From contig DASWMJ010000009.1 of assembly GCA_036399775.1 (NCBI GenBank), forward strand, positions 3,866 through 67,865: 64,000 nucleotides of DNA, written 5' to 3'. This DNA comes from Chloroflexia bacterium (GTDB taxonomy: Bacteria > Chloroflexota > Chloroflexia > QHBQ01 > JADMIH01). The notes under the pieces were generated by a model. The model did no database searches, was not told the origin of the DNA, and saw nothing but the letters and a program-made list of their open reading frames with translations. The translations under genes and the position numbers were made by a program. Positions 175 to 61,460 of the stretch are shown here, in pieces (the first letter of the stretch is position 1; every line of letters begins with the position of its first letter).

Positions 175-421
175 CGCCCCAAAGCGCCCAAATGAACCTT
201 ATCAGGCGTAAATGTGTCAATATGATATAGGGGCGTAGTGCGTAGTACGTACTGCGTATCGCATAGTGCTTATCACGAAAATACGCATCACACGACAGTA
301 GTACAAATTACGACAGACATTCAGTTTTCCTGAGAGGCTTGGGGAAACTGGTTTTTATTGCACCCAACCGAGTAAACGTCACCCTACAACTACCATCTGT
401 CACTGAGACTAATATCAAACT

Positions 422-444
422 CTGACCCCTGACCCCTGACCCCT
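422..444. repeat. Tandem heptamer array (GACCCCT x3), member of the intergenic heptamer-repeat family
   Basis: Direct reading: ctgacccctgacccctgacccct. The same heptamer or its reverse complement recurs at 38133-38213, 38916-38951 and 40455-40480. Confidence 0.7.
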
Positions 445-483
445 ATTTTCGAGAGAAGAACATATGAAGGGAGCAAGTTCCAT

Positions 484-1458
484 ATGGCCGCGATAGCCCA
501 GGCGCATGACAGGCCCGCTTCTGCCGGTGTAGAGCGAAGCGAGGCCGCCGCGATATGGCGACGTTTTCGCAGGCACAAGCTAGGCGTTGCCGGGCTGATT
601 ATGCTGGCGATACTTGGACTGGCAGCGCTGATAATACCTGCCGTTTCACCTTATAGCTACCGCGACGTAAACCCCCTCATGCCGTTCGCGCCCGCCAACT
701 CTATGGATTCTGTTAGGGGTATCCCTCACTTATTTGGCACCGATTACCTCGGCAGGGATGTATTCACCCGCCTCTTTTACGGCGAGCGAACGTCTTTGTT
801 CGTTTCGATATTTGCCACCCTTTTCATAGTGGTCATCGGTGTGGTCACGGGCGCGATTGCGGGGTTCTACGGGGGTTGGGTCGATACGGTGCTGATGCGA
901 TTCACCGACTTCATGCTGGCCCTGCCCCTGCTGCCGGTATACTTGTTCGCCAACAAGCTATTCAGGCCGACGACCATCACGCCCGAAGACGCCTTCCCCG
1001 TAACCATGAACCTGGCCCTCATATTCGTGCTATTCGGCTGGATGGGCATGAGCCGCCTGGTCAGAGGCTCTTTCCTGTCGCTCCGCACGGAGTCTTACGT
1101 CGAAGCGTCAAAGGCGCTTGGGGCCAGCAATCGCAGGCTGATCTTCAGGCACCTGCTCCCCAATTCTATCGCGCCCGTGCTGGTGGCGGCCACCTTCTCC
1201 GTGGGGGACTTCATCATCTGGGAGTGCGTTCTTGCCTACTTCGGCCAGGGCGTAACCGATTTTATCGTGCCCTCGCTCGGCAATATGGTGGTGACGGCGC
1301 AGGTCTTCGTCTGGAACATGGACGTGCTCAATCCCTTCGAGGGAATTAAAGCATATCTGCTGATAATCCCCGGCGCTATGATATTTTTGACGGTCCTTTC
1401 CATCAACTATGTAGGCGACGCTCTCCGCAACGCCCTCGATCCCCACCAAACCAATTGA
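484..1458 (+). CDS. ABC transporter permease, DppC/OppC-like
   Basis: 324 aa with multiple TM segments. Carries the classic BPD-transporter motif region LGRDVFTRLFYGERTSLFVSIF...AGFYGGWVDTVLMRFTDFMLALP typical of OppC/DppC. Confidence 0.85.
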   Translation: MAAIAQAHDRPASAGVERSEAAAIWRRFRRHKLGVAGLIMLAILGLAALIIPAVSPYSYRDVNPLMPFAPANSMDSVRGIPHLFGTDYLGRDVFTRLFYGERTSLFVSIFATLFIVVIGVVTGAIAGFYGGWVDTVLMRFTDFMLALPLLPVYLFANKLFRPTTITPEDAFPVTMNLALIFVLFGWMGMSRLVRGSFLSLRTESYVEASKALGASNRRLIFRHLLPNSIAPVLVAATFSVGDFIIWECVLAYFGQGVTDFIVPSLGNMVVTAQVFVWNMDVLNPFEGIKAYLLIIPGAMIFLTVLSINYVGDALRNALDPHQTN

Positions 1459-1460
1459 CG

Positions 1461-1552
1461 AATTTTGAATTCTAAATTCTAAATTTTGAGTTATCCGCCT
1501 ATTTCAGAGGTTGTCTGAATTTAGAATTCAAAATTCAAAACTCAAAATTCAG
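1461..1552. repeat. Inverted pair of AT-rich tandem-heptamer arrays (AATTCTA/AACTCAA type) flanking a ~25-bp centre
   Basis: aattttgaattctaaattctaaattttgag ... aatttagaattcaaaattcaaaactcaaaattc. The arms are approximately reverse-complementary and the element sits between two permease genes. Confidence 0.7.
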
Positions 1553-1574
1553 AGAAGGGTTGGAGTGACAAACT

Positions 1575-2783
1575 ATGGCAACGTACATGTTGCGGCGGTT
1601 TTTGCAGAGTATCGGTTTTATTGCTATTGCCTGGCTCATTGTGTACTCGGTAGTTGTGCTATTGATACCCAACGGGCCGAAGCAGAGTTATGATCGCCAG
1701 ATACAGGCATTTCGAGAGATGAGCGGGCTGACTGACGTGAGCAGCCCGGAAACCGACCTGCTGGCACAGCGCTACAAGGTTGACAAGCCCTGGCCGCTCA
1801 ACTTCTTCTATTGGCTATTCGACCCCGACGTCAGGCCGGTAGAAGGTGCGACTGGAGGGCCTTTCGGGCAGCCAGTAGAGCACAAGCCGGTCATAGTAGA
1901 CATACAGATTGGGGGCCTGACCCTTCACGGAGCGGGCATTCTTACGGGGGACTTCGGCCAATCGGTCCGAGTGTACAGGGGCCGCCTAGTCGCAGATCTG
2001 GTGAGAGAAGCATGGCTGCATACCGCTATTCTAGTGGGTCTGTCGCTGGTGATCGCGGTAGCGCTCGCGGTGCCGGTTGGGATAGTTGGCGCTGTGCGGC
2101 AACGCTCTAAGCTAGACCACGCGTTGACCTTCTTCTCGTTTGCGGGGTTCTCGATGCCCCTCTTCCAGATCGGCCTGGTACTTATGATCTGGCTGGCCGT
2201 GTTCCCATACTTCTGGCACACCAGGGACGGTTGGACGTGGATGCCTTACTTGCCCGCAATCGGCGTGTCGGATCCCGACCAGTACGATAACTGGATAAAT
2301 CGTATCTACCATCTCATATTGCCTACGCTCACGTTGGCGCTCCCGCAGATAGTGCTGCTGTCGCGTTATATCCGCTCGTCCCTGGCAGAAGTGTTGAAGC
2401 AGGACTATATACGTACGGCCCGCGCTAAAGGACTATCCACGCGGCGCGTGGTGTGGAAGCACGGTTTGCGTAACGCCCTGATACCGCTCATCACGGTCGT
2501 AGGCGTGATGCTGCCCAGCCTGGTTTCCGGCGCGATTATCGTTGAGACCCTATTCGGCTATCCCGGCGTGGGCCAGATGTTTTACAAAGGGCTGGGCGGC
2601 TGCCTGCCGACCCTGATAGCCGGCGATACCTGTCCTGAGGGTGGATATCCAATAGACTATCCCCTGGCCCTCGCTCTGACCCTCATATTCGTGGCGATAG
2701 TGGCTTTCTCCAATCTCATCACCGACTATCTCTACACCCTGGCCGACCCCAGGATAAGTCTCACGGCGCGGCAACAGGGTTGA
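1575..2783 (+). CDS. ABC transporter permease, DppB/OppB-like, with an internal insertion
   Basis: 402 aa with TM segments. Motif region ...YIRTARAKGLSTRRVVWKHGLRNALIPLITVVG... is the characteristic permease signature. It is ~90 aa longer than typical DppB. Confidence 0.85.
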   Translation: MATYMLRRFLQSIGFIAIAWLIVYSVVVLLIPNGPKQSYDRQIQAFREMSGLTDVSSPETDLLAQRYKVDKPWPLNFFYWLFDPDVRPVEGATGGPFGQPVEHKPVIVDIQIGGLTLHGAGILTGDFGQSVRVYRGRLVADLVREAWLHTAILVGLSLVIAVALAVPVGIVGAVRQRSKLDHALTFFSFAGFSMPLFQIGLVLMIWLAVFPYFWHTRDGWTWMPYLPAIGVSDPDQYDNWINRIYHLILPTLTLALPQIVLLSRYIRSSLAEVLKQDYIRTARAKGLSTRRVVWKHGLRNALIPLITVVGVMLPSLVSGAIIVETLFGYPGVGQMFYKGLGGCLPTLIAGDTCPEGGYPIDYPLALALTLIFVAIVAFSNLITDYLYTLADPRISLTARQQG

Positions 2784-2813
2784 TGATGTAGCATATCCCT
2801 CTCAGGTTTAGGC

Positions 2814-2857: not shown

Positions 2858-2926
2858 CGTAACACTGACGCTACACCGCACAACACTGTTGCAGCGCCGT
2901 AAAATACAGGAACGCCATCTTACCAT

Positions 2927-3054
2927 CCTTGTCATTCTGAGCGTAGCGAAGAATCTCGTCCCTCGCGTATGCTCTTGCCCTTGCATTCCCCGTCTACGCT
3001 CCCCGGCTTTGTACGCGAGGGACGAGATTCTTCGCTGCGCTCAGAATGACAAGG
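2927..3054. repeat. MITE-like palindromic element A, copy 1 (~43-bp inverted arms, GTCATTCTGAGCG-AGCGAAGAATCTCG core)
   Basis: Left arm ccttgtcattctgagcgtagcgaagaatctcgtccctcgcgta and its reverse complement tacgcgagggacgagattcttcgctgcgctcagaatgacaagg. A second copy is at 58691-58859. Confidence 0.65.
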
Positions 3055-3201
3055 GGAAGGGGGTTCGTTACCCTCTACATTATGCCCCACTTCACAGCCG
3101 CCTTACTAACTTCTGTATAAGTTTTCCCCAACTCCGCATCCCCGTGCTATAATAGTCGCACACTAAAACATACGTGCTAATATCCACCGTAACGGCACCT
3201 C

Positions 3202-5928
3202 ATGAAGTGCCTGCCAAGACGAGAAAAGGTCAGCCCTATGCCATCAGCCCCCGCAAAGAAATCAACCAGGCCCGCCGCGCCTACTTGGTCGAAGGTGAGC
3301 GGTAGCAGCAACACTCCTCGGACGTCCGCTTCAAAGTCCACCGGCGCAAAGAACAGTTCTCGACCTGCATCTTCTTCCGCGCGCAACGCTGCCGGTAAAG
3401 TGAAGGCGCGCAGTACGGCGCGTGCGTCTCGTGCCGCTTCGTCTCCGCCATTTGAGATACCCGCGCATCTACGGCGGGAGATAATGGCGCTGGCTATGCT
3501 GGCGGTGGCGGGGCTGTTCGTGGTGGGGCTGCTTAGCTGGTCGAGTGGCGGCCAGGGTATCGTAGGCGTCATGGGTGGCGTGGTGGCGCAGTTGTTCGGA
3601 GTGCTGGCGTGGGTGGTGCCGGTTGCGCTGGCTGCCGGGGCCGTCGTGCTCCTGCTGGGTGCGCGCTCTGATGCTCGGTGGCTTTCCCCGTTGATGCCGT
3701 TGGGCCTCTCCATAATGCTGCTTGGGCTGATGGGTTTCGCCCATCTCTTCACTAACGGGCAGGGGGCGGCTGATAGCGGGCAGGGTGGCGGCTATGTCGG
3801 TCTCGCCATCTCTACATTCCTGTCAGACTTCCTCACCAGCGCGGGCGCGGGGGTAGTGCTTGCCGCGCTCATCCTGATCGGCTTCATGCTGGCCTTCGGG
3901 GTATCTCTGGCGCAGGTGGTACGCGGTATAGGCCGCCCCACCGTCGCCGCCGGACGCCTCACAGGTAAAGCTATAGGCGAAGCAAGCACCCAGGTATCGC
4001 GCATTCTTGATGAGAGGCAGACAAAATCTAAAATCCGGGTGCCCTCTGGGCGACCAAAATCCAATATCAACACAGAGCCTGTGCGAATAAACGGGCTGGA
4101 TACTTCTCTTGAAGCAAGTGATACCTCCGCGCTACCTACTTTTGACGTGTTGTCGGAGGTCGGTGGGGAGGCGATTGACCCGGCCTCTGCACCCACAGAG
4201 GTTGTGAATCTCCTGGGCGATAAGAGTGCGACGCCGGAAAACGGCAAGGCCAAGCCCGACCCGGTGATAAACATCCGCAAGTCGGATAAGAAGGCGGGGA
4301 CTACCGAACCGACGCTCGGCCCGCAAGAGCCTATCCAGTCGCCGTTGGGCTACATCTGGAACCTGCCTCCCATGAATTTGCTTGAAACGACCAGCGAATT
4401 GAAGGTGAGCCAGGCCGACATCAAGGCCAAGATAAAGGTGATAGAGGACGCCCTGCAATCGTTCAACGTGGAGGCGACGGTGCGCGAGGTCAACACAGGC
4501 CCCGCCGTCACGCAGTTCGCCATCGAGCCGGGCACGGGGGTGCGCGTCAACCGCATAACCGCGCTGGACAAAGACCTGGCATTGGCCCTCGCCGCCCCTG
4601 ACATACGCATCGAAGCGCCAATACCGGGGCAGTCCCGCGTTGGTATAGAGGTGCCCAACGTGTCTCTACAGGTGGTGGGCCTGCGGAGTATCCTGGAGGC
4701 TGACGCCTTCCAGGTCAGCAAGGGCCGGCTGAAGATCGCGCTGGGGCGGGACACGCACGGCCAGCCTGTGGTGACGGACCTCGCCAAGCTGCCTCACATA
4801 CTGGTGGCCGGGGCGACTGGTAGCGGCAAGTCGGTCTTCCTCAACTCGATGGTGATAGGCTTCCTGACGCAGTTTACGCCCGACGACCTTCGCATGCTGA
4901 TGATAGACCCCAAGCGGGTAGAGTTGACCGGCTTCAACGGCATCCCCCACCTCCTGCGTCCTGTGGTCACGGATGTGCGCCTCGAAAAAGACCAGTCCCG
5001 GCCTCAGAATCCGAAGTCTAAGGGAGAAGCCGACCGGGAGCGCCCCCTGACGGCTGTGGAGGCGTTGAAGTGGGCGTTGTGGGAGATGGAGAGGCGTTAT
5101 AAACTCTTCGCGAATGGAAAGCGCGGGAAGGACGGCATCAGCAAGGTATTCCGCAACATAGAGCAGTATCGCACTTTCCTGAAGGAAAACCCCGAAACCA
5201 ACATGGAATACCTGCCGTATATAGTCATCATCATAGACGAGCTTGCCGACCTGATGCTTACCGCGCCAGAGGAGGTAGAGACATCGCTGTGCCGCCTGGC
5301 GCAGCTTGCCCGCGCAACCGGCATACATTTAGTGGTCGCCACCCAGCGCCCCTCGGTGGACGTGGTGACGGGCCTCATCAAGGCCAACTTCCCTGCGCGT
5401 GCTGCATTCGCTGTCACGTCGCAAGTGGACAGCAAGGTTATCCTGGATGGGGGTGGTGCCGAGAAGCTATTGGGACGCGGCGACATGCTCTACACGGCTT
5501 CCGACGAGAGCAAGCCTGTGCGTATCCAGGGTACGTTCGTATCGGATGCCGAGTCGGATAAGGTAGTGCATTTCTGGCGCAAGCAGTTGCCGTCGGAGAA
5601 AGAGCTAGCCGAGACGGGCGTGGAGGCCCCGGTACAGCCGATGCCGATGCCCGATTGGCTGGGCACGGGCGACGCCAACGAAGAGAGCGAGCTTCTTGAG
5701 CAGGCGATAGAGCTTGTGAAGAAGAGCCAGTACGTATCGGTCTCTATGCTGCAACGCAAGCTACGTATCGGCTACAACCGCGCAGCCCGCATCGTGGAGC
5801 AGATGGAGGAGCTAGGGCTGATCTCGCCCGCGAATGGCGACAGCCGGGGCAAGCCACGCGAAGTGTTGCTGGGCGCGCCCGACCCCCGCGCCGACGATAT
5901 GCGAGAACTGGTAGGTGACGAGGACTAG
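3202..5928 (+). CDS. ftsK: DNA translocase FtsK/SpoIIIE
   Basis: N-terminal TM region, long low-complexity linker, then motor domain with Walker A LVAGATGSGKSVFLNSM, Walker B IIIDELADLM, and the LVVATQRPSVDVVTGLIKANFPARAAFAVTSQVDS motif. C-terminal gamma-like winged helix (VSMLQRKLRIGYNRAARIVEQMEELGLI). The true start may be the Met at 3238. Confidence 0.9.
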   Translation: MKCLPRREKVSPMPSAPAKKSTRPAAPTWSKVSGSSNTPRTSASKSTGAKNSSRPASSSARNAAGKVKARSTARASRAASSPPFEIPAHLRREIMALAMLAVAGLFVVGLLSWSSGGQGIVGVMGGVVAQLFGVLAWVVPVALAAGAVVLLLGARSDARWLSPLMPLGLSIMLLGLMGFAHLFTNGQGAADSGQGGGYVGLAISTFLSDFLTSAGAGVVLAALILIGFMLAFGVSLAQVVRGIGRPTVAAGRLTGKAIGEASTQVSRILDERQTKSKIRVPSGRPKSNINTEPVRINGLDTSLEASDTSALPTFDVLSEVGGEAIDPASAPTEVVNLLGDKSATPENGKAKPDPVINIRKSDKKAGTTEPTLGPQEPIQSPLGYIWNLPPMNLLETTSELKVSQADIKAKIKVIEDALQSFNVEATVREVNTGPAVTQFAIEPGTGVRVNRITALDKDLALALAAPDIRIEAPIPGQSRVGIEVPNVSLQVVGLRSILEADAFQVSKGRLKIALGRDTHGQPVVTDLAKLPHILVAGATGSGKSVFLNSMVIGFLTQFTPDDLRMLMIDPKRVELTGFNGIPHLLRPVVTDVRLEKDQSRPQNPKSKGEADRERPLTAVEALKWALWEMERRYKLFANGKRGKDGISKVFRNIEQYRTFLKENPETNMEYLPYIVIIIDELADLMLTAPEEVETSLCRLAQLARATGIHLVVATQRPSVDVVTGLIKANFPARAAFAVTSQVDSKVILDGGGAEKLLGRGDMLYTASDESKPVRIQGTFVSDAESDKVVHFWRKQLPSEKELAETGVEAPVQPMPMPDWLGTGDANEESELLEQAIELVKKSQYVSVSMLQRKLRIGYNRAARIVEQMEELGLISPANGDSRGKPREVLLGAPDPRADDMRELVGDED

Positions 5929-6594: not shown

Positions 6595-7221
6595 TCAGCG
6601 ATTCCCACTCGAAATGACAGCGATCACGATGACCGTTATGATCACCGATATGATCACTGAAATGAGCACAATGAGCAAGATGGTCAAGAGAATGCTGAGT
6701 AGTACGGCCGCGACGGCTTTGCCGGTGGATATCTTGCCATCCTCACGAATACCAATTACGTTGCCTATGATTTGAAGGATGGATCCGAGCAACTGCCCAA
6801 CAATAGGCACGGGAATGGCACCAAGCAGATGGAACAAATAGGTATGGCCTACGATGCGCAAGACATTGGCTCGCGTCGTTTGCGCGCCAAAGAAGCGCCT
6901 GGCAGCCAGGGTGAGCATCCGCGAGCTTGCGCTCCAGAAGATCAGCTCAAAAAGCATCCCCACAACGACGCGCCCCACCAGCACCAGCGTAGGGTCGGTC
7001 CCGGCGGCTAGCTCCATCCTGTAACCCTCCGGGATACCGTAGCCCTCCGGGAGCAGAGCGGTGGAGCCGCTTTGTGCCCTTATCAACGCACCCACCAGGC
7101 CCCGGACCAGGCCCACAACCAGCACGATGAGTAGCGCTATCCGTGTGGCCTCGCGGTCTTGTGCAACCTCACGATACGCAGCAGGTCTGAAAGTCACGAT
7201 ACCGAGCAAGCGTTCAATCAT
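6595..7221 (-). CDS. Yip1-family membrane protein (start trimmed to internal Met preceded by GGAGG)
   Basis: From MIERLLGIVTFRPAAYREVAQDREATRIALLIVLVVGLVRG..., multi-TM. The minus-strand sequence reads ggaggccaaagATGattgaacgc, giving a good RBS. The longer ORF to 7371 has an implausible Cys-rich N-terminus. Confidence 0.55.
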   Translation of the reverse strand: MIERLLGIVTFRPAAYREVAQDREATRIALLIVLVVGLVRGLVGALIRAQSGSTALLPEGYGIPEGYRMELAAGTDPTLVLVGRVVVGMLFELIFWSASSRMLTLAARRFFGAQTTRANVLRIVGHTYLFHLLGAIPVPIVGQLLGSILQIIGNVIGIREDGKISTGKAVAAVLLSILLTILLIVLISVIISVIITVIVIAVISSGNR

Positions 7222-9181: not shown

Positions 9182-9236
9182 ACGTCAAGATGGCATGTGC
9201 TCCGGTAGGGTAAGCCAGACTTCGCCTGCGGGGAGG
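9182..9236. repeat. Direct repeat DR1-left: displaced copy of the 3' end of gene 10564..11487
   Basis: acgtcaagatggcatgtgctccggtagggtaagccagacttcgcctgcggggagg aligns with 10561-10616 (6 substitutions plus 1 indel). On the minus strand it still encodes PAGEVWLTLPEHMPS-stop. Confidence 0.8.
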
Positions 9237-9335: not shown

Positions 9336-10388
9336 CTATGAGCCGAGTTTGCCGTAGGCCTTAAGAATACGATATGTATCTTTACCGTCTATAAAGCAGT
9401 AGTAACGTGGCTGATAGGCATATCGAGCCAATGCCGCAAGTACATGTCTAACCTTATGATCAATATCATGGGCATGTTGGACGATCAACAAATCCGCTTG
9501 CACAGTTGCTAATCTATAGAGCTGGTCATTGGCCTTACCCTGATTGCTACTCAATGTCATAGGGCTAAAACGGGCAGGACCCTTCAGTAAGAACGCTGCT
9601 GTAACTCTCTTGCCTCCAATATGCAAAGCAGGAGTGAAGTGATCCATTTGTTCGCCTCCCCAGTCTTTACCAGTTGTATCTCCAAGCAAATCAGCTAATC
9701 TCGCCTTTATAACCTTCTCTGGCAGGTTCTTCATTTGAGATTGCCAAACAGCTAATGCAGGCGGCATTATCTTTCGACACTCACTAAACTCATCTATATT
9801 TTCTGCATGGATCTCGAATGTTTCGTAGCCAGGCCATATAACTGAATAGTCTAAATCGTGATGAGCAGAGTTATGGGTAACGACAGGCAAGCCGATCACT
9901 AAAGGCTGGATGACCACTTGCTTCTCATCAAAACTGTGTATCCGTCCTATGATTGAAACAGGTGCGCCTTCAGTCAACAAGACTCTCATGGTGGTTGATA
10001 CAAAATGCTCTGGACTGAAATCTAGAATTATAGTACGTGCATCGTATACCTGTCCAATGACCTTTTGTATGCGCTCGTTATCTGATCTGAGTTTTCCAGG
10101 TGCCACACGCTCCAAACTTGCGAATACCGTCCCCTCCCGCAGGTCATGAAGAACGGCAGCTAGTGTGGGAATACGCTTATTACGACACTTGGCAAGAACA
10201 CGATCAGACAAGAACACGCTTCTGCTCTTTACACCGAAAGGGTCGGTAAGTAGGAGCAACGCAGGGAACCGAAGAGTAATCTCAGCAATTATAGAAGGTC
10301 CAATGAACGACATACACATCCGCTCATTAAGAAATCCAGGATCAACATTTACCTCATATCCATCTGAACCAAAGAGCACTCTTATCAC
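9336..10388 (-). CDS. Hypothetical protein, cargo of low-GC islet 1 (no family recognised; C-terminal region with clustered D/E/H/K residues, possibly nuclease-like)
   Basis: 350-aa ORF in clearly AT-richer DNA, GTG start (alternative GTG at 10379 has a GAGGTG RBS). Its own ~170-bp AT-rich upstream region is 10389-10560. C-terminus ...GKDWGGEQMDHFTPALHIGGKRVTAAFLLKG...LLIVQHAHDIDHKVRH.... Confidence 0.65.
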   Translation of the reverse strand: MIRVLFGSDGYEVNVDPGFLNERMCMSFIGPSIIAEITLRFPALLLLTDPFGVKSRSVFLSDRVLAKCRNKRIPTLAAVLHDLREGTVFASLERVAPGKLRSDNERIQKVIGQVYDARTIILDFSPEHFVSTTMRVLLTEGAPVSIIGRIHSFDEKQVVIQPLVIGLPVVTHNSAHHDLDYSVIWPGYETFEIHAENIDEFSECRKIMPPALAVWQSQMKNLPEKVIKARLADLLGDTTGKDWGGEQMDHFTPALHIGGKRVTAAFLLKGPARFSPMTLSSNQGKANDQLYRLATVQADLLIVQHAHDIDHKVRHVLAALARYAYQPRYYCFIDGKDTYRILKAYGKLGS

Positions 10389-10560: not shown

Positions 10561-10616
10561 ACGTCAAGACGGCATATGCTCCGGCAGGGTGAGCCACACC
10601 TCGCCTGCGGGGGAGG
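10561..10616. repeat. Direct repeat DR1-right: functional 3' end of gene 10564..11487
   Basis: acgtcaagacggcatatgctccggcagggtgagccacacctcgcctgcgggggagg; partner of 9182-9236. Confidence 0.8.
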
Positions 10617-14643: not shown

Positions 14644-14702
14644 GCTTTCGCGGCAGGGTCACATAAGACAGAAAAGACGGAACCACAAAGACACAAGCTA
14701 CA

Positions 14703-14752: not shown

Positions 14753-14999
14753 CTCACCCAACTACATCTCCCCTATTCGAGAGGAATGTTCAAGAGAAGA
14801 AAACAGGCGGCGCAGTAGCCTGTTTTCTTCTTTAACTAATGATTTTACACTTGCCAACAGAGAAATATAAACATTTGAAATTTCACCTTGCCTAAATTGT
14901 GTATTGACAATATAAGAAATGGGATATATAATGAGGTATAATTTAGACTAGCCTAAAAATCACTACCGATTATGTACCGGGGTGTTGGAGATCATCAGA

Positions 15000-44275: not shown

Positions 44276-44299
44276 TGACAATAGCAAAGGGGCAGGCGT

Positions 44300-44728: not shown

Positions 44729-44737
44729 TCCCCGACA

Positions 44738-46501: not shown

Positions 46502-46920
46502 TGAAGGTGGTGGTAGACGCTAACATTATTATTAGTCGTATACTCGTGCCCACAGGCGTACCAGCACAGGTTATAGAATACCATAAGAAAACGATTGAAC
46601 TTCTGACTTCCGAGCCTATTCTTGCGGAATGTCGCAGGGTGATGCGCTACAAACGCCTTCGCGCACGTCATCATTTGACTGACGATGAGATAGATTTGGC
46701 TATTGATTCGTTTAGGGAGATTGCCGATGTGGTGGAAGGAATCATGAATCTTGATGTCATCACAAAAGACCCGGACGACAATAAGATTATTGAATGCGCG
46801 GTGGTAGGCGGGGCTGATTACATAGTAAGTGGTGACGCCCACCTACTCAATGTCGGAGAGTATAAAGGCATCAGGATTCTCTCCCCCGCAAGTTTCCTAC
46901 TCCTATTAAAACGGGCCTAG
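46498..46920 (+). CDS. PIN-domain toxin (VapC-like), overlaps antitoxin stop by 4 nt
   Basis: MMKVVVDANIIISRIL... with acidic residues at typical PIN positions (DAN, ...SGD). ATGA overlap with the upstream antitoxin. AT-richer DNA. Confidence 0.6.
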   Translation: MMKVVVDANIIISRILVPTGVPAQVIEYHKKTIELLTSEPILAECRRVMRYKRLRARHHLTDDEIDLAIDSFREIADVVEGIMNLDVITKDPDDNKIIECAVVGGADYIVSGDAHLLNVGEYKGIRILSPASFLLLLKRA

Positions 46921-47789: not shown

Positions 47790-48731
47790 TTGCCACTCGT
47801 AGACATGTATCGCGCCCTTGATAGCGAGCGGCGCAAAGTTATCGTTGGGCAGCGTTGGACGTTCGATTTGCTGCTCGTGGCCCTGCTCACCGACGGGCAC
47901 GTCTTGTTGGAGGGAGTGCCGGGGGTGGCTAAGACCCTCATGGCGCGCACCCTTGCTACTACCCTGCGAGCCGACTTCAAGCGCGTGCAGTTCACACCTG
48001 ACCTCATGCCCTCCGACGTTATCGGCACCAACGTATTTGACCTGGCGAGCAGCACTTTCTCTCTGAGGCGGGGACCCGTATTTACCAGCATCATGCTAGG
48101 CGACGAGATAAACCGCGCCCCGGCCAAGACCCAATCGGCACTCCTGGAAGCGATGGAGGAGCGTCAGGTGACTATTGACGGCGTGAGCCACCCCCTGCCC
48201 GATCTCTTCATGGTCATCGCCACCCAGAACCCAATCGAGTACGAGGGCACCTACCCCTTGCCGGAGGCGCAACTCGACCGCTTCCTCTTCAAAGTGCTGG
48301 TGGACTACCCTACGCACGAAGAAGGTCTGCAAGTATTGAGGAATTACCAGGCGGGGTTCAGTCCGCGCAGGCTAACGGGTATAGAGCCGGTGGCGGGGCC
48401 GGACGACCTGCGCTCGGCGCGCCACGAGATAGCCGCCATCAAAGTAGCCGACCCGCTGATCGACTACATCCAGCGCATCGTGGACGAGAGCCGCCGCTCA
48501 CCCGATTTGTCGCTGGGTGGCTCCCCACGCGCCGCGATAGCCCTTCTCAACGCGAGCAAAACCCTCGCCGCGCTCCAGGGCCGCGAGTACGTTGTGCCCG
48601 ACGACATCAAGCTCCTGGTGCCGCCCGTTATGCGCCACCGCGTCATCCTCAAACCCGAAGCTGAGATAGAGGGGCTGAACGCCGATCGTGCCCTTGAGCG
48701 CATCATGGCGCGGGTCGAAGTACCCAGGTAA
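47790..48731 (+). CDS. MoxR-family AAA+ ATPase
   Basis: Walker [13 protein letters not shown], Walker B region [24 protein letters not shown], then the ...[21 protein letters not shown] sensor motifs. Confidence 0.88.
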
Positions 48732-48784
48732 ATTGCGAATTTCGGATTGCGGATTGCGAATTTGATGACCTTAGATTTTACGGC

Positions 48785-50164
48785 ATGATAACGCGGCGTG
48801 CTCTTTATTTGCTGCTGCTCGCGGCACCTATACTCGCGCTGGCGACTATAGTGCCCGTCGCTGTATGGGCGGCTGCTCTTTACCTGGCGGGTATGCTGGC
48901 GCTGCTGGCCGCCGACTTTTGGCTGTCGCCCAAGCCTTCCGACTTCAGGCTTGCACGGGAGAATGAAAGCAAGCTCTCCCTCGGTGCAGACAACATGGTG
49001 CGTATCGCTATCAGGCGGCTGGGCGCGCCCGGCGGCCAGGGCCTGAGAGATGCCCCCGTGCCCTTCCTGGTGCGCGACGAGCCTCCGGTCGAGTACATCG
49101 CCAGCGACGTATTTCTCCCACGCAGCAACGAGGCAAATAACTCAAAACTCAAAACTCAAAACTCAAAACTCGAAATCGGTCCAGGGGAGACGGCGGAAGT
49201 CAGCTATACCGTCAAGCCGTTGCGGCGCGGGGACTATGCGTTCGGTGGGTGCCACCTGCGCTATGGCGGCGTGCTGGGCCTCATCCTCCGCCAGCATCGC
49301 TACCCCATCGGTGCGCCCGTGAAGGTCTACCCTAACCTACTGGAAGTGCGTAAATATGAATTGCTGGCGCGGCGGGACCAGCTATTCGAGATAGGGCTGA
49401 AGAATGCTCGGCGCATAGGGCAGGGCACCGAGTTCGAGCGGCTGCGTGACTATGAGCGCGACGACGACTACCGCCGCATCAACTGGCCCGCCACCGCCCG
49501 CCTGCACAAGCCCATCACTACGGATTACCAGCCCGAAAGGAGCCAGAGCGTTATCGTCATGCTCGACGCGGGGCGATTGATGACCGCGCCCCTCGGCCCG
49601 CTCTCCAAGCTCGATTATGCTATCAACACGACGCTACTGCTGGCATACGTAGCTATAATTCGGGGGGACCGGGTCGGCCTCCTTACCTTCGCCGATAGAG
49701 TGACGGGCTACTGGGAGCCGGACAAGGGCCGCAAGCAGTTCCTCGCGCTGCTGGATGCCCTCTACAAGGTGCAGCCCCAGCAAGTTGAGGCCGATTATAT
49801 GCGGGCGAGCGCGTTCCTCTCTACGAGGCGCAGCAAGCGCAGCCTGGTGGTGCTCTTCACCGACATTATAGACAGGCAGCAGGCCGACGTGATGGTGCGC
49901 GGCTTCGGGCGGCTGGCCCCACGCCACCTGCCTGTGGCCGTGACTATGGCCGACAACGAAGTGCTGACTATGGCCCACCGCGAACCGTCCGATGCCCAGC
50001 AGATGTACGAGAAGGTAATCGCCCAGCAACTCCTGGACGACCGCGTGAAGGCTCTGGACGCCCTCCAACGCCGGGGCGCGCTCACCATAGACGTGCCCGC
50101 CGACAAGCTGACGCCTGCGGTAGTGAACAAGTACCTTGAGCTAAAGGCGCGAGGGAGGTTGTAA
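48785..50164 (+). CDS. DUF58-domain protein (vWA-like, MoxR partner)
   Basis: DYERDDDYRRINWPATARLHKPITTDYQPERSQSVIVMLDAGRLM is the DUF58 core. Contains an in-frame AACTCAA heptamer array (49139-49177) encoding NSKLKTQNSKLEI. Confidence 0.8.
   Translation: MITRRALYLLLLAAPILALATIVPVAVWAAALYLAGMLALLAADFWLSPKPSDFRLARENESKLSLGADNMVRIAIRRLGAPGGQGLRDAPVPFLVRDEPPVEYIASDVFLPRSNEANNSKLKTQNSKLEIGPGETAEVSYTVKPLRRGDYAFGGCHLRYGGVLGLILRQHRYPIGAPVKVYPNLLEVRKYELLARRDQLFEIGLKNARRIGQGTEFERLRDYERDDDYRRINWPATARLHKPITTDYQPERSQSVIVMLDAGRLMTAPLGPLSKLDYAINTTLLLAYVAIIRGDRVGLLTFADRVTGYWEPDKGRKQFLALLDALYKVQPQQVEADYMRASAFLSTRRSKRSLVVLFTDIIDRQQADVMVRGFGRLAPRHLPVAVTMADNEVLTMAHREPSDAQQMYEKVIAQQLLDDRVKALDALQRRGALTIDVPADKLTPAVVNKYLELKARGRL
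50081..50164. repeat. Direct repeat DR2-left: native 3' end of the DUF58 gene (84 bp)
   Basis: ctcaccatagacgtgcccgccgacaagctgacgcctgcggtagtgaacaagtaccttgagctaaaggcgcgagggaggttgtaa. Partner at 52063-52146 has 5 differences. Confidence 0.85.
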
Positions 50165-52062: not shown

Positions 52063-52146
52063 CTCACCATAGATGTGCCTGTCGACAAGCTCACGCCTGC
52101 GGTGGTGAACAAGTACCTTGAGCTAAAGGCGCGAGGGAGGTTGTAA
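52063..52146. repeat. Direct repeat DR2-right: second copy of the DUF58 3' end
   Basis: ctcaccatagatgtgcctgtcgacaagctcacgcctgcggtggtgaacaagtaccttgagctaaaggcgcgagggaggttgtaa. Encodes LTIDVPVDKLTPAVVNKYLELKARGRL-stop, versus native ...PADKL... (4 synonymous and 1 A->V change). Confidence 0.85.
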
Positions 52147-52329: not shown

Positions 52330-52728
52330 ATGAAAAGTAAAGTAATCAAGTCTGATGCGGAGTGGAAGCAACAACTTACCCCGGATCAGTACCGGGTCGC
52401 CCGCCAGAAGGGTACGGAGCGCGCCTTCACAGGCGAATACGCTCACACCCACGACGAGGGCGTGTATAAGTGCGTGTGCTGTGGGGCGGAACTATTCAGC
52501 TCGGACACCAAATTCGAGTCGGGCACCGGCTGGCCCAGCTTCTACGCGCCCATCTCGGAGGAGAATGTCAGCACGGAGACCGACGACAGCTTCTGGATGC
52601 GGCGCACAGAAGTGATGTGTAGCGCCTGCGACGCCCACCTGGGCCACGTCTTCGATGACGGCCCCCAGCCGACGGGCCTGCGCTATTGCATCAACTCGGC
52701 ATCTCTCAAGCTGGATAGGGAAGCGTAA
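52330..52728 (+). CDS. msrB: Peptide methionine sulfoxide reductase MsrB
   Basis: CxxC...CxxC zinc site and GTGWPSF...RYCINSASL catalytic motif. Confidence 0.88.
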
Positions 52729-52738
52729 AACGTAAAAC

Positions 52739-53248
52739 GTGAGAGGAAATAGGAGAAATAGAATGGAAAAGGCAACATTGGAGAAGGCGACGTTTGGAGC
52801 GGGGTGCTTCTGGGGTGTAGAGGCGGCGTTTCGACAGATAAAGGGGGTGGTCTCGACCTCGGTTGGATACAGTGGTGGAGCGTACAACAACCCATCCTAC
52901 CGGGATGTCTGCACGGGGAGGACCGGGCATGCTGAGGTGGTGGAGGTGGTATACGACCCGGCTAGAGTCTCATACGACGATCTCTTGCAGGTCTTCTGGG
53001 AGAACCACAACCCGACCACGATGAACCGGCAAGGCCCCGACGTAGGCACTCAGTACAGGTCCGCGATCTTCTTCCACAGCCCTGAACAGCAGGCAGCCGC
53101 GCTGGCCTCAAAAACGAAGCTGGATAGCAGTGGCAGGTATGGCAGGCCAATCGTGACGGAAATCACGCCCGCCTCGCAGTTCTACCCTGCGGAGGAGTAC
53201 CACCAGCAGTACCTGGAGAAGCGCGGGCTGTCTACCTGCCATATTTAG
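52739..53248 (+). CDS. msrA: Peptide methionine sulfoxide reductase MsrA
   Basis: [15 protein letters not shown] is the GCFWG active-site motif. Confidence 0.88.
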
Positions 53249-55252: not shown

Positions 55253-55413
55253 TGCGGAGTGCGGAGTGCGGAGTGCGGAAGGCGGAGTGCGGAGTGCGGA
55301 GTGCGGAGTGCGGAATATAGCCGAGCACTAACGCCAACATTACCGATTACCCAAATTGGCCTATCTTAATTCCGCATTCCGCACTCCGCATTCCGCACTC
55401 CGCATTCCGCATT
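55253..55413. repeat. Inverted pair of heptamer arrays (GCGGAGT x9 / TTCCGCA x6) around a 53-bp centre
   Basis: gcggagtgcggagtgcggagtgcggaaggcggagt... atagccgagcactaacgccaacattaccgattacccaaattggcctatcttaa ...ttccgcattccgcactccgcattccgc. Confidence 0.8.
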
Positions 55414-55787
55414 CAGGAGGCTGCTCGCTCTTGAAGGTCGGTGTACTTCGTGTTGCGGCCTCTTGACAGGTCGGCGGGGTAGTGGCCTGCGGAGATCGCC
55501 ATCTTGTCGCGGAAGACGGCAGAGAGGTCGAAGTCTACCGAGGAAGCGAGCGCCAGGACGTGATAGAGCAGATCGGCTATCTCGTGGGCGACGGCCAGCC
55601 GCTTGCCTGGCTGCTTGAGGAGGGCTTCTATCTCATCATCTGTGCGGAAGCGGAAATGCTCCATCAACTCGCCCAGCTCTATCGCCATGCTGAGGGTGAG
55701 GTCCTTCGGGGACTCATGCCACTGGCGCTCCTCGCAAAACTTATCTACCAGGCTGCGCAGGTAGGCTACCGATGTCTGCTCGTCCAT
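55413..55787 (-). CDS. MazG-like nucleotide pyrophosphohydrolase
   Basis: ELGELMEHFRF...EIADLLYHVLALA is the EExxE/D MazG core. Confidence 0.8.
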   Translation of the reverse strand: MDEQTSVAYLRSLVDKFCEERQWHESPKDLTLSMAIELGELMEHFRFRTDDEIEALLKQPGKRLAVAHEIADLLYHVLALASSVDFDLSAVFRDKMAISAGHYPADLSRGRNTKYTDLQERAAS

Positions 55788-56002
55788 CTCTGTAGATGCT
55801 CCTGTGGCTCTATTGGGTGATGGGTGATAGGTTTTGGGTGGTAGGCAGTCGAAGTGCCGCTATCCGGTTAACGGATTATAGCCCGCATGGTTCCCGCGCG
55901 CCGACATTTCCACTAATCGGGATACCTGTTTCATGAGAAATCCCGATTTTCCTTATCCTTGCGCAAATCGGCACTCTCATCTGCCAGGCACAAACCTCTT
56001 AT

Positions 56003-58603: not shown

Positions 58604-58690
58604 GGTAGTGACCTCGGATAATCTTAGGTAGTCTTATTTGCTCTCTGGTGGCGTATCAAAAAAGTAGCGAGGGAACGCCACCCTACTATT

Positions 58691-58859
58691 CCTGTCATTC
58701 TGAGCGAAGCGAAGAATCTCGATCCTCGCGTAGATGCTTATGGTACGCCTTGTATGCTTACCCGACACGATCTCTGAGAGCGAGATTCTTCTTTCTTACG
58801 AATAATCCCGGCATTGTTCGCGAGGATCGAGATTCTTCGCTTCGCTCAGAATGACAAGG
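58691..58859. repeat. MITE-like palindromic element A, copy 2
   Basis: cctgtcattctgagcgaagcgaagaatctcgatcctcgcgta ... cgcgaggatcgagattcttcgcttcgctcagaatgacaagg. Confidence 0.65.
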
Positions 58860-59463: not shown

Positions 59464-59514
59464 ATGCGGAATGCCGAATATGACCTTCGCAAATCACGTT
59501 TTACGTTTCACGTT

Positions 59515-60234
59515 TCACGCATCACACTTGAGTACCATCGTCACCACGCCCTGCACGCGTACCGGGTCGCGGTCGCCTTCGCGGCGGCCTGGGAAGATGC
59601 GGATGGGGTCGGTGGAGGCATTGGCTGATTGTAGGAAGATGTGGTCGCGGCGCTTGTAGAACCGCTTGAGGGTGGCGAGACCTTCCGCGCCTGCCGCGTC
59701 CCCGGCGGTGAAGCCTGCTACCACGAAATCGCCGTCTTCGGCCCAGTTCTGCGGGCGCACTATCACAACGTCGCCCGGCTCGATGCCGACGTGGGTCATG
59801 GAGGTGCCGCGCACGCGCAGAGCGTAAGAGCCGCCACGCGCCAGGGCTTTCTCCACCAGCACGCCGCCTTCGTAGTCGAGGCAGTCGTACTCCTGGTAGG
59901 CCACCGTCACATCGTACTGCCCCGCCGCGATCTCGCCTATGACGGGCAGGCGGGACACGCTGGCTGCGGGCTTGCGGCGCTGCCTCTCCACATTGGAGAC
60001 GTAGACGCTGCTGTTGTGCTTGTTGCGCTCCGGCCTGCTCTGCTGTTCGTCCGAAAGGGTAGGCTCTCCACCGAGCACGCGGTATGCCTCAGCTTCAGGC
60101 TTGAACGCCTTGAGGCTGACGCTGCTCACCCAATCGGGCGGCGCTGCTACCGTGCGGGTGAAGCGCGCCCAGGCCGGGTTAGGCCCCGCCTGCGGCCCGC
60201 GATGTGGTGAAAATCCCGGCAATCGAATTACCAT
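59515..60234 (-). CDS. S24-family peptidase (LexA/UmuD-like C-terminal domain) with non-canonical N-terminus
   Basis: C-terminus GTSMTHVGIEPGDVVIVRPQNWAEDGDFVVAGFTAGDAAGAEGLATLKRFYKR is the S24 catalytic domain (Ser in GTSM, Lys in LKRF). The N-terminal ~110 aa lack an obvious wHTH. Start uncertain. Confidence 0.6.
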   Translation of the reverse strand: MVIRLPGFSPHRGPQAGPNPAWARFTRTVAAPPDWVSSVSLKAFKPEAEAYRVLGGEPTLSDEQQSRPERNKHNSSVYVSNVERQRRKPAASVSRLPVIGEIAAGQYDVTVAYQEYDCLDYEGGVLVEKALARGGSYALRVRGTSMTHVGIEPGDVVIVRPQNWAEDGDFVVAGFTAGDAAGAEGLATLKRFYKRRDHIFLQSANASTDPIRIFPGRREGDRDPVRVQGVVTMVLKCDA

Positions 60235-60250
60235 TGTGCCTACCTCCTAA

Positions 60251-60371
60251 CGTATTGCGTAGTGCGTATTTCGTATTGCAATGGAGTTAGTGAACTTGAG
60301 TTGTGGAAGCTAGCTATTACTAACCCTCTTTGATTGGGACCTTACGCAATACGAAATACGCACTACGTAAG
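60251..60371. repeat. Inverted pair of heptamer arrays (CGTATTG/CGTAGTG) around a ~75-bp centre
   Basis: cgtattgcgtagtgcgtatttcgtattgca ... ttacgcaatacgaaatacgcactacgtaa (exact reverse-complement arms). Confidence 0.8.
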
Positions 60372-60471
60372 GATGGATGGCGAACCGGCCAGGGATAAGC
60401 CCCAGGCCGGCGCACTCTATTTAGGGTATGCACCCGGCGCATACCTCTAATGACTCAGTTATCGCTTATTT

Positions 60472-61170
60472 TTAGTCCAGGCGGCGGATGACGCCCACTA
60501 CCCTGCCCTTGATCTCTACGTTGTCGGGCTGGGTGAAGATGGGGGACATGGTGCTGTTGGCGGGCTGCAAGCGAACGCGCCCCTCTTCGAGGTAGAACCT
60601 CTTGAGGGTAGCTTCCTGCTCGGCCTTGAGCCATGCCGCGACGGTCTGGCCGTTCTCGGCTGTCTCCCGCGCTTCGAGGATCACCAGATCGCCGTCGTTG
60701 ATGAGGGCGTCTATCATGGAGGTCCCCTTGACGCGCAGGGCGTACAGGCGGTCTATGTGCGTCGCGTGGCGGCCCAGGAAGTCACCTGTCACCTCCACCG
60801 TGTCGTCGGTCGCCGCGCCCATGCGGATGTCTTCCAGCACGGGGATGGGGGAACCGGCGGCGATGGGCGTTGGCGCGACGGGTATCATGTAGGCCGGCTG
60901 GCGGTTGCGGCTGCGCCCGTTGCTGTCCACAAGCTCTATCGCCCGTGACTTATTGCGGTCGCGCCTGATGTAGCCCGCCTCCTCCAATGCGCGCAGGTTG
61001 TAGTCTACAACCGACGTGGAGGTGTTGCCCGATGCCGTGCGCACGAGGCCTGCCTTCTCGACTTCGCCCTTGATCTCGCGGATAGAAGGCGCGTAGCCGT
61101 GTTCCCGGAGGTAGTCGCCGATGAAGGACAGGATAAAGCGTTGGCGTTCCGATAATCGCTTCTTTTTCAT
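60472..61170 (-). CDS. lexA: LexA repressor
   Basis: N-terminal wHTH LSERQRFILSFIGDYLREHGYAPSIREI. Cleavage/catalytic domain ...ALRVKGTSMIDALINDGDLVILEARETAENGQTVAAWLKAEQEATLKRFY. Confidence 0.88.
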   Translation of the reverse strand: MKKKRLSERQRFILSFIGDYLREHGYAPSIREIKGEVEKAGLVRTASGNTSTSVVDYNLRALEEAGYIRRDRNKSRAIELVDSNGRSRNRQPAYMIPVAPTPIAAGSPIPVLEDIRMGAATDDTVEVTGDFLGRHATHIDRLYALRVKGTSMIDALINDGDLVILEARETAENGQTVAAWLKAEQEATLKRFYLEEGRVRLQPANSTMSPIFTQPDNVEIKGRVVGVIRRLD

Positions 61171-61270
61171 GGTTCTATTTCCTCTCTAGTGCTCCCCCGG
61201 AGCTTTTGCATATAATGGGCATTCTGAATTTCTTGCGATACGCCCGATATGCCTAGGGCGACTATAGCAT

Positions 61271-61284
61271 AGAACCAATGTTCT
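61271..61284. promoter_or_regulatory. Candidate LexA operator (Cheo-box-like GAAC-N4-GTTC) between lexA and the divergent cvpA-like gene
   Basis: agaaccaatgttct, ~100 bp upstream of the lexA start codon. Palindromic GAAC/GTTC half-sites with a 4-nt spacer. Confidence 0.45.
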
Positions 61285-61325
61285 TGTCAATACCTTTTTG
61301 CACTAATTTGGAACAAATATGCTGA

Positions 61326-61460
61326 TTCGTATTGCGTAGTGCGTATTGCGTATTGCATGTGAACCACAAAGACACAAAGAACACTAAGGTTTCGGGATTG
61401 AACCATAGGAGCGCTGAGGCTATTAGAAGCTTTACGCAATACGTACTACGTAGTACGAGG
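61326..61460. repeat. Composite repeat: CGTATTG heptamer array + GAACCACAAAGACACAAAGAACACTAAG unit + inverted heptamer array
   Basis: cgtattgcgtagtgcgtattgcgtattg catgt gaaccacaaagacacaaagaacactaagg ... ctttacgcaatacgtactacgtagtacg. The unit matches 41555-41585 in opposite orientation. Confidence 0.75.

Follow-up and report, generated by a model that had tools for sequence, protein, structure and literature searches.

Tandem arrays of 7-nt units occur throughout the 64,000-nt stretch of DNA analyzed here (hereafter the window), which belongs to an uncultured Chloroflexota bacterium represented by a metagenome genome. These heptanucleotide arrays lie mainly in the spacers between genes, some of them singly and others as inverted pairs that form long predicted hairpins. 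Taken as a whole, they are likely to be simple sequence repeats (SSRs) of the cyanobacterial short tandemly repeated repetitive (STRR) and long-SSR kind, with slippage as the driving process. Alignment of the window with its relatives shows that the arrays gain, lose and swap units and whole elements far faster than the flanking genes diverge. Bacterial heptanucleotide repeats have been on record since 1990 and serve in strain typing. To our knowledge, no function has been established for them, nor has it been established why the period is 7 nt.

The period of seven stands out in two separate counts of what constitutes an array. Tandem Repeats Finder (TRF), applied to the whole window, returned 42 rows of which 24 have period 7. 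A strict scan of the window for at least three units at periods 5-12 found nine arrays of period 7 and one of period 8, and none of period 5, 6, 9, 10, 11 or 12. The nine period-7 arrays compare with zero in 30 second-order Markov simulations of the window. TRF recovered an array at each of the loci listed in a preliminary description of this DNA, with the sequences given there, and four others had been overlooked (38919-38948, 49139-49175, 40459-40473 and 55814-55840). That description had the heptamer differing at each locus, which was overstated. The units group into about four related families that each recur at several loci: TGCGKAK (loci 233, 35701, 41521, 48731, 55253, 60251 and 61326), AAAACGT/GAAACGT (35799, 52724 and 59494), GGGGNCA (422, 38133, 38919 and 40459) and AAYTYWA (1461, 19811 and 49139). 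The elements are collected in Table 1.

The arrays are reproduced in other assemblies, in which the matching DNA stretches are referred to by L numbers. The window is identical, arrays included, to JGI metagenome contig 3300034402 Ga0334960_000007 (L002, L144, L149) and to three Logan contigs of run SRR10954981 (L141, L145, L151; L141 carries the identical array at 38919-38948). The ENA contig ERZ27253115 k141_175468 (L143) represents the same genome. Over 20.7 kb it differs from the JGI sequence by a single indel of 14 nt, equal to two units, in the arm at 55369-55414, and by four clustered mismatches just beyond the window (L143 4832-4839); a few further differences lie 5' of the window start. 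As the JGI, Logan and ENA assemblies carry the same arrays, these are not assembler inventions, with the reservation that the assemblies may share reads. Nor are the arrays confined to the window, since members of the same unit families extend past both of its ends on the same contig, where an ATTTTAG/AAATCTA pair lies between two permease genes. The longest array seen, a perfect (CGTATTG)x16.4 of 115 nt, is located about 2.3-2.5 kb past the window end (L144 4701-4913); beyond it come a unique centre and an inverse arm of about five degenerate units. The array is directly adjoined by the cluster of four mismatches that separates the ENA and JGI sequences. The closest named homologues of the MetRS and CorA proteins come from metagenome-assembled genomes of Chloroflexia or Chloroflexota bacteria (70-80% identity), with Ktedonobacteria at approximately 61%.

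Placement relative to genes was determined from the collection's gene calls and Pfam. As the preliminary description of a pervasive intergenic family implied, 25 of 28 arrays fall within non-coding DNA, which makes up 17% of the window. Arrays are found in 11 of 36 co-directional spacers, in 2 of 9 divergent spacers and in none of the 10 convergent ones. Within co-directional spacers, 8 of 10 elements overlap the upstream stop codon or start no more than 4 nt from it, and in several cases the stop codon is itself part of the first unit (for example TAA in CGTAAAA at msrB and TGA in GTGAAAC at the S24 paralogue). The promoter and terminator positions originally proposed are therefore not typical of these elements. 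Two arrays enter called coding sequence, at the end of ispD (about 10 codons) and near the N-terminus of a DUF58 gene (12 codons); the latter is inserted in frame, unless the true DUF58 start codon is downstream of it.

Related genomes provide direct evidence that array length changes by whole units. The comparisons involve L003 (approximately 91% identical to the window, used at the metG array), L142 (flanks 89-93% identical), L139 and L142 at the corA spacer (flanking genes 90-95%), L146 (97% identical in lexA) and L117 (75-81%), the last being the only close relative from a LexA metagenome scan whose peptide patterns were unspecific. The array before metG has five units in the window and four in L003, separated by a clean 7-nt gap, and the array at the S24/DUF1706 junction (59494-59526) is shorter by one unit in L142. 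Within the corA spacer, the inner TCACGCA array comprises seven units in L142 and four in L139. The segment missing from the ENA contig is TGCGGAATGCGGAG, exactly two units. The check on copy number between strains thus found whole-unit differences in L003, L142, L139 and the ENA contig, and the 7-nt and 14-nt indels together with the four versus seven units document directly the slippage hotspots that had been suspected.

Replacement of units and of whole elements is equally evident. At the cvpA-lexA element, L142 has almost identical flanks and a homologous centre that retains 24 of 28 nt of an embedded core, and both arms have changed together: the left is (AAACGTG)x9 and the right CACGCAT/CACGTTT, compared with CGTATTG and CAATACG in the window. 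In the corA spacer, the interval between the stop codon of the MazG-like gene and a conserved ATTTGCCACTCTTCC is occupied by (TGCGGAG)n...(CTCCGCA)n in the window and by (GGGGTCA)3 ... (TCACGCA)n ... (CTAACCC)3 in L139 and L142. The lexA-S24 spacer holds a CGTATTG hairpin in the window, whereas L142 and L146 have AAACGTG followed by a GATTTCT/AACTTCT array. No heptamer arrays are present at the lexA-S24 and S24-DinB junctions of L117, where the boundaries against the window are sharp and the spacer at the site of 59494-59526 is only about 10 nt long. In L003, the octamer-hairpin segment corresponding to 19596-19710 is absent or replaced.

Two further rearrangements were seen at these places. 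Between L003 5951-7221 and window 19523-19720, the CGCCAAGA hairpin segment is replaced by a gene of the aminoglycoside phosphotransferase family (PF01636) together with a palindrome resembling a miniature inverted-repeat transposable element (MITE). In L142 (6132-7990), dnaA is situated roughly 1 kb from cvpA-lexA, and directly after it come AGTTATG x4.7 and CTCAGCA x9.4 arrays that form a hairpin (z -5.7); this neighbourhood differs in the genome of the window, which indicates a rearrangement next to this region.

Replication slippage is the best-supported driver of the arrays, which it would both create and resize, because their length changes by whole units, a lone arm can expand, they are replaced rapidly relative to their flanks and they are confined to harmless positions. 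The perfect 16-unit arm beside a degenerate partner points to recent expansion of one arm only. Accumulation behind stop codons would follow from the fact that a 7-nt duplication is harmless there and causes a frameshift inside a gene. Slippage may be accompanied by template switching between the arms of an extruded hairpin, which would keep them complementary, and by recombination or gene conversion between dispersed copies, which would have the same effect and would also spread unit types and the embedded core. On a weaker inference, the hairpins, where transcribed within operons, would probably affect mRNA decay or translation termination as intercistronic stem-loops similar to repetitive extragenic palindromic (REP) sequences, and their sequence itself would have no specific function.

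The set of relatives provides a clean natural experiment, with junctions that are empty, differently filled, different by one or two units or changed in both arms together, and such a comparative series can discriminate among slippage, hairpin-templated copying and mobility. The arrays are also hypervariable markers for strain resolution in metagenomes and a source of small differences between assemblies.

Several points weigh against slippage as a full account. The preference for 7 nt is not accounted for by our analysis, and the argument from polymerase behaviour comes from the literature only. The 14-nt difference between the ENA and JGI contigs could be a repeat collapse by the assembler and not a true polymorphism. 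Slippage alone leaves unexplained the wholesale replacement of array and centre at the corA spacer of genomes that are 90-95% identical, and it fails equally to explain an identical 28-mer and 16-nt junction in two paralogous copies of this genome when the L142 ortholog differs; both observations suggest some copy-and-paste or gene-conversion process. For the suggested action as RNA, the difficulties are that the + strand folds better by 8-15 kcal/mol at the 55253, 60251 and 61326 pairs, being antisense to both flanking genes at the first two (there is no sense strand at 61326, since the flanking genes are divergent), that no pair is followed by a U-tract, and that the two arrays of the L142 lexA-S24 element are non-complementary and do not fold (z 0.3).

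Table 1. Heptamer arrays, inverted pairs and octamer elements of the window
Feature	Position	Strand	Setting
Solo array GCGTAGT x5.3, TGCGKAK family	233-269		310-nt spacer upstream of OppC-like permease gene
Solo array CTGACCC x3.3, perfect; C-rich strand of GGGGNCA family	422-444		39 nt upstream of permease start codon
Inverted pair AATTCTA / AATTCAA	1461-1552	+	Between co-directional ABC permease genes, 2 nt past upstream stop
Partial octamer-hairpin arm GGAACCACAAAGACACAAG	14676-14694	+	Downstream of 4HBT gene, just before terminator-like hairpin
8-nt-unit hairpin: CGCCAAGA x3 (19597-19620) and inverted AACCGCCAAGACGCAAAGA (- strand, 19692-19707), loop of about 70 nt; same class as the octamer core, not a 7-mer array	19596-19710
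Solo array ACTTCTA/GATTTCT x5	19811-19850	+	Ends 7 nt before metG start codon
Composite: TGCGTAG x2.9 arm, centre with diverged octamer core GAACCGCAAAATCGCAAAGGAACGCAGAG, TACGCAA arm, short ACGTTT array	35701-35812	-	Between ABC ATPase and ABC-2 permease genes; ACGTTT array overlaps ATPase stop codon
Inverted pair GGGGNCA x3.7 ... TGATCCC x3.6	38133-38213	+	Between PIN-TRAM gene and ispD, from stop codon
AGGGGCC x4.3 array with G-quadruplex motif	38919-38948	+	Final ~10 codons of ispD; ispF follows directly
Weak two-unit array ACCCCTG x2.1, family of 422-444	40459-40473
Composite: short CGTATTG arm, centre, 28-nt octamer core (41567-41594), ACGCAAT x4.4 arm	41521-41634	+	From 2 nt past dtd stop to 15 nt before next start codon
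Solo array AATTGCG/GATTGCG x4.6	48731-48766	+	Begins on moxR stop codon
AACTCAA x5.3 array	49139-49175	+	Inside called DUF58 open reading frame, codons ~111-122, upstream of Pfam domain
CGTAAAA x2.4 array	52724-52742	+	First unit holds msrB stop; 22 nt before msrA start
Largest inverted pair, TGCGGAG x8.9 ... ATTCCGC x6.6	55253-55414	-	Between MazG-like gene and corA; overlaps MazG-like stop
Weak TGGGTGA x3.9 array	55814-55840		Upstream of MazG-like gene; sequence conserved in L142
GAAACGT/AAAACGT array, 3.7 units (TRF)	59494-59526	-	Overlaps stop codon of S24 paralogue
Inverted pair CGTATTG x4.1 ... TACGCAA x3.6	60251-60371	-	lexA / S24 paralogue spacer; ends 16 nt from paralogue start
Composite: CGTATTG x4.1 arm, 28-nt octamer core (61361-61388), centre, TACGCAA arm	61326-61460		Between divergent lexA and cvpA

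Published systems offer several parallels to these arrays. Heptanucleotide long SSRs are over-represented in the survey of Mrazek (2007), for which polymerase slippage was proposed (as cited in PMC4679880 and PMC4692102). These long SSRs, with 5-11-nt units, are likewise dominated by heptanucleotides and intergenic, those with 7-nt units are known from several other groups of bacteria, and whole-unit variation is seen in the window; in the form in which it is cited, the survey does not emphasize inverted pairs or include this lineage. In the P6b helix of the Nostoc trnL intron, heptanucleotide repeats pair into a hairpin, vary in copy number and have acquired inserted elements (PMC3488679). 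The window shares with these STRRs the degenerate 7-nt unit classes, hairpin pairing, copy-number differences between strains and inserted non-repeat elements, but STRRs belong to heterocystous cyanobacteria, use other units and occupy an intron helix, compared with the stop-proximal intercistronic sites of a Chloroflexota host. The strict STRR units CCCCAGT, TTGGTCA and CAACAGT do not occur in tandem within the window, and on this basis, as well as the host, the arrays are assigned to the broad heptanucleotide kind and not to STRR1-3.

In Geobacter metallireducens, tandem sites of octa- and heptanucleotides come in pairs with the partners on opposite strands, for example at proB/proA (PMC2700814). 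They resemble the arrays in having three to five tandem units of 7-9 nt, opposite-strand pairs at variable distance, intergenic or intercistronic positions and lineage-specific families. They differ in having a fixed consensus for each class, where units in the window change between close strains, and in having been read as binding sites of IHF/HU type; in addition, the window arrays show no insertion sequence at a fixed distance. The G-rich heptamers GGGNATC and GGGGA(Y)T of Xanthomonas and Nostoc (PMC4692102) have quadruplex potential and are intergenic, variable in length and in some cases inverted; they resemble only the GGGGNCA family, from which their exact unit differs. The TAACTGA repeats of marine Beggiatoaceae, cyanobacteria and Bacteroidetes (PMC4679880) form arrays directly before start codons, at the expected position of a ribosome-binding site, to which the ACTTCTA array 7 nt before metG is a parallel, but in those genomes a single unit dominates and the arrays are almost exclusively direct, only one being inverted. 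Neither TAACTGA nor the other published units occur in tandem in the window.

A further comparison is with REP sequences, bacterial interspersed mosaic elements (BIMEs) and REP doublets forming hairpins (REPINs), which are also intergenic hairpin doublets, often intercistronic; a gene resembling a REP-associated tyrosine transposase (RAYT) is present in the window. REPs consist of a single conserved palindrome, tagged GTAG or CGTC, and lack tandem units, whereas the arms in the window comprise four strain-variable families, and the RAYT of the window is flanked by different palindromes and so is not a cognate one. A literature search combining Chloroflexi with heptanucleotide or STRR repeats found no relevant paper. 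Elhai and colleagues are said to have described in 2008 small dispersed repeats (SDRs) of Nostoc punctiforme, 21-27 nt long, with hairpin potential and embedded in tandem heptameric repeats. The 28-nt core described below has a comparable setting, but the SDRs are reportedly confined to a cyanobacterial subgroup, whereas the 22-mer of the core is found across many phyla. The present locus extends the heptamer-array phenomenon to Chloroflexota and links it to a hairpin of 8-nt units that is found across phyla.

We considered whether the hairpins are selected cis-acting RNA elements of operons, acting as stabilizers, processing sites, attenuators, terminators or uncouplers of translation at stop codons in the manner of enterobacterial REP/BIME sequences. 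The architecture of inverted arms, which the preliminary description had called common among the 7-mer arrays, was found at eight loci (beginning at 1461, 19596, 35701, 38133, 41521, 55253, 60251 and 61326); other loci are solo, and that at 19596-19710 is made of 8-mers. All eight are predicted to form long stem-loops of -29 to -108 kcal/mol, with z scores of -2.6 to -11.6 against shuffled sequences. These very stable stems include 1461-1552 (-28.7 kcal/mol on the + and -30.4 on the - strand, z approximately -6), 38133-38213 (-62 kcal/mol, z approximately -10) and 55253-55414 (-108 on the + and -93 on the - strand). The preference for co-directional over convergent spacers and the proximity to stop codons agree with such a role, and the hairpin form persists at the corA and cvpA-lexA spacers despite replacement of the sequence, with the arms changing together. 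Liang, Rudd and Deutscher reportedly found in 2015 that REP hairpins of E. coli influence how the preceding gene is translated when they lie within approximately 15 nt of its stop codon. Set against this, a folding advantage of the sense strand was looked for in the strand energies across the pairs and not found, two elements folding clearly better as antisense; the elements are absent from the same operon junctions in L117, and the L142 lexA-S24 version is not a hairpin. The absence of a U-tract is joined by that of any match to an Rfam family. An intercistronic role as RNA hairpins is plausible from position alone and unproven, and as the overall explanation of the arrays we regard it as rather unlikely.

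A second alternative arises from similarities among dispersed elements. The elements at 35701-35812, 41521-41634, 60251-60371 and 61326-61460 align as one dispersed composite family, and the copies at 41521 and 61326 have in common a 16-nt junction, CGTATTGCGTAAAGCT, and an identical 28-nt core, GAACCACAAAGACACAAAGAACACTAAG (41567-41594 on the - strand, 61361-61388 on the + strand). A diverged copy of the core is present within 35701-35812. The L142 ortholog of the 61326 element has four core differences and different arms, so that the sharing of the 28-mer between 41521 and 61326 indicates copying or gene conversion among dispersed copies within the lineage. The contrast originally drawn with elements of constant sequence therefore fails for these four copies of one composite. 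The shared core had also been recognized, and its identity at the 41521 and 61326 loci and partial presence at 14676 are confirmed, but it is not a unique centre. It contains two 8-nt units, CACAAAGA, plus flanks, and is one arm of a separate hairpin element with 8-nt units that is distinct from the 7-mer arrays.

This octamer hairpin is widespread. An exact-match search with 22 nt of the core, GTTCTTTGTGTCTTTGTGGTTC (window 41572-41593 on the + strand and 61362-61383 on the - strand), in one genome per species returned at least 113 DNA stretches (L004-L116), where our calculation gives a chance expectation of approximately 0.07 matches. Among the matches listed, the hosts are Cyanobacteria (Calothrix, Microcystis, Spirulina, Halothece and Symploca), Chloroflexota (Anaerolineae, Phototrophicaceae and Chloroflexia), Planctomycetota, Acidobacteriota, Desulfobacterales, Bacteroidota, Proteobacteria and a Pelosinus. 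In these same matches the 22-mer mostly supplies one arm of a hairpin with the structure GAACCAC(A/G)AAG(A/G)CAC(A/G)AAG ... loop ... CTTYGTGYCTTYGTGGTTC, and its partner lies upstream in 76 of 119 occurrences and downstream in 22. Heptamer arrays flank the hairpin in several core-containing genomes as they do in the window, for example in Spirulina (L044, L074), and core loci of Acidobacteriota (L030, L065), Planctomycetaceae (L077) and Chloroflexia (L070) themselves contain inverted heptamer pairs. Period-7 arrays of at least 2.8 copies number 0.28 per kb in the window, 0.23 in the relative strain (L142 and L003) and 0.10 in the 113 core-containing loci among the matches listed, compared with 0.008 in 241 kb of unrelated control loci, a comparison that is confounded by taxonomy.

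Attempts to assign a direction or a family to the octamer hairpin gave little. Its orientation relative to neighbouring genes in the 113 loci, based on crude open reading frame (ORF) calls, was noisy and showed no clear bias. Selection at the RNA level, as judged from G·T versus A·C arm mismatches, was rejected as an argument because an exact-match search that fixes one arm biases the result. Rfam at permissive E-values matched five octamer-hairpin loci only to generic miRNA-hairpin models, far below threshold, and a literature search with the core sequence returned only primer noise and no paper naming the 22-mer. The occurrence of this hairpin across phyla in the company of 7-mer arrays merits its own follow-up and is testable in public genomes.

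From these observations it can be proposed that the pairs are small non-autonomous elements, MITE-like or SDR-like, that end in heptamer arrays and were inserted or swapped intercistronically, with slippage acting later and with some transposase or an RNA or single-stranded DNA hairpin intermediate as carrier. Such a proposal draws on the composite family with its shared core and CGTATTGCGTAAAGCT junction, on the many-phylum distribution of the 22-mer, on the presence or absence of 60251-60371 as a unit with sharp boundaries relative to L117, on the exchange of an entire array-centre-array unit at the corA spacer of L139 and L142, and on the GATTTCT/AACTTCT array type upstream of two unrelated genes. 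Terminal inverted repeats, as expected of MITEs, are present at eight loci (one L142 ortholog lacks complementarity), and the 64 kb contain four related copies, of which a pair shares the identical 28-mer. The proposal fits less well with the variation in unit number and even unit type of the arms between copies, with the many solo arrays and non-complementary L142 arms, and with the centres of 1461, 38133 and 55253, which are unique within the DNA examined. No clear target-site duplication was seen at 60251-60371 relative to L117, the sole comparison of a filled with an empty site and one in which L117 is strongly diverged. No candidate transposase is linked to the pairs, the sole Y1 transposase in the window being flanked by a different palindrome family. 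We consider mobility of this kind a rather unlikely explanation.

The Y1 transposase gene is IS200-like (PF01797; 44300-44728), has a low G+C content at third codon positions (GC3) of 0.45 and is bordered on both sides by palindromes of about 125 nt (44139-44282 and 44737-44860), a third copy of which is located at 32857-32983. This gene and its palindromes look like a RAYT with REPIN-type repeats, unrelated to the heptamer arrays. The RAYT was set aside as a mobilizer of the arrays, its flanking repeats being of a different family. MITE-like palindromes that include TGTCATTCTGAGCGAAGCGAAGAATCTCG are found at 2909-3087 and 58672-58859, and in L003 at 3747-3870 and 7010-7179, positions other than those in the window; their 38-43-nt arms show 98-100% complementarity.

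A broader and quite doubtful possibility is that the 7-mer pairs and the 8-mer core hairpin together constitute one horizontally spreading, self-propagating hairpin system built of short tandem units, in which an enzyme or copying through an RNA or single-stranded DNA hairpin would install and replace elements at stop-adjacent intercistronic sites. Were this true, it would account for the exact 22-mer across cyanobacteria, Chloroflexota, Planctomycetota, Acidobacteriota, Desulfobacterales, Bacteroidota and others, for the more than 10-fold excess of 7-mer arrays in genomes with the 22-mer over control loci, and for unrelated arrays of the same architecture at orthologous spacers of near-identical strains.

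Action through G-quadruplexes, already suggested for GGGNATC repeats in Xanthomonas and Nostoc (PMC4692102), has been considered for the GGGGNCA family, the units of which are similar in type to those published. At least four tracts of three or more G with short loops, the sequence motif defined by Rehm et al. (2015), are present in this family only. Three canonical G3+N1-7 motifs occur in the window, at 38133-38157 (+), 38187-38210 (-) and 38920-38944 (+). The exact published units are absent, however, only one of the four families would be covered, and pairing with the C-rich arm at 38133-38213 competes with quadruplex formation. We regard this explanation as very unlikely.

It is more improbable still that the arrays are iterated sites for a DNA- or RNA-binding protein, such as a global regulator or a protein resembling IHF/HU or Csp/S1. 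In favour of such sites, the arrangement of repeated units in pairs is reminiscent of operators with several sites or of the ends of transposons, some arrays adjoin a start codon (that of metG is 7 nt away), and protein binding has been proposed for the paired repeats of Geobacter (PMC2700814) and the TAACTGA repeats of Beggiatoaceae (PMC4679880). The window contains at least four unit families in 64 kb with unstable copy numbers, units are extremely diverse across genomes, and the unit type switches at orthologous sites of strains that are 89-97% identical. The four families and the switching between strains make a single sequence-specific binder unlikely, since recognition of one sequence could not keep pace with changes of this kind, and the protein-binding arrays suggested in the preliminary description accordingly lose their appeal as sites of one specific protein.

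The reading of the arrays as assembly artefacts, suggested by the 14-nt difference within one array and by the possibility of repeat collapse with short-read assemblers, is effectively refuted, since the remaining compared arrays are the same in the JGI, ENA and Logan assemblies, homologous arrays are present in other samples and strains, and array lengths are below read length. A reading as CRISPR was also ruled out, in agreement with the preliminary description, the units being contiguous and 7-8 nt long in place of 23-47-nt repeats with unique spacers. No cas gene was found among the Pfam-scanned genes flanking the arrays. Rfam at gathering thresholds gave no family match and no CRISPR repeat across the window. 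A scan of the window for tRNA and tmRNA genes found none, and an FtsK exact-match look-up gave no match.

Other repeats of the window are distinct from the arrays. A family of perfectly symmetric hairpins of AAAATGGGCGGCGCAGCCGCCCATTTT, flanked by A/T-rich sequence on both sides, is located at gene ends (14789-14837, 17357-17405 and 23487-23535) and looks like a set of bidirectional intrinsic terminators; ordinary terminators thus appear to exist in the window, distinct from the heptamer pairs. Another repeat family is represented at 28759-28849 by a palindrome with 38-nt arms and GGGCGACCCGGYGGGTCGCCC modules upstream of a TPR gene. Tandem repeats of 216-222 nt at 23650-24104 and 26529-27016 are coding repeats within two large, neighbouring SLH-domain genes and have no relation to the arrays.

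Two direct repeats were also noted. An 84-nt repeat (94% identical; 50081-50164 and 52063-52146) duplicates the end of the DUF58 coding sequence, stop codon included, at a site 2 kb downstream, in a stretch of small ORFs with low GC3 (approximately 50.5-52.2 kb). A 52-nt repeat (88% identical; 9182-9233 and 10561-10612) lies on both sides of a low-GC3 ORF (9336-10388), where its two copies may delimit an insertion. Candidate defence or addiction modules are represented by a PhdYeFM antitoxin and PIN_3 toxin pair at 46229-46920 and, just outside the window (L144 762-3319), by a TIR-domain gene followed by an NB-ARC-TPR gene.

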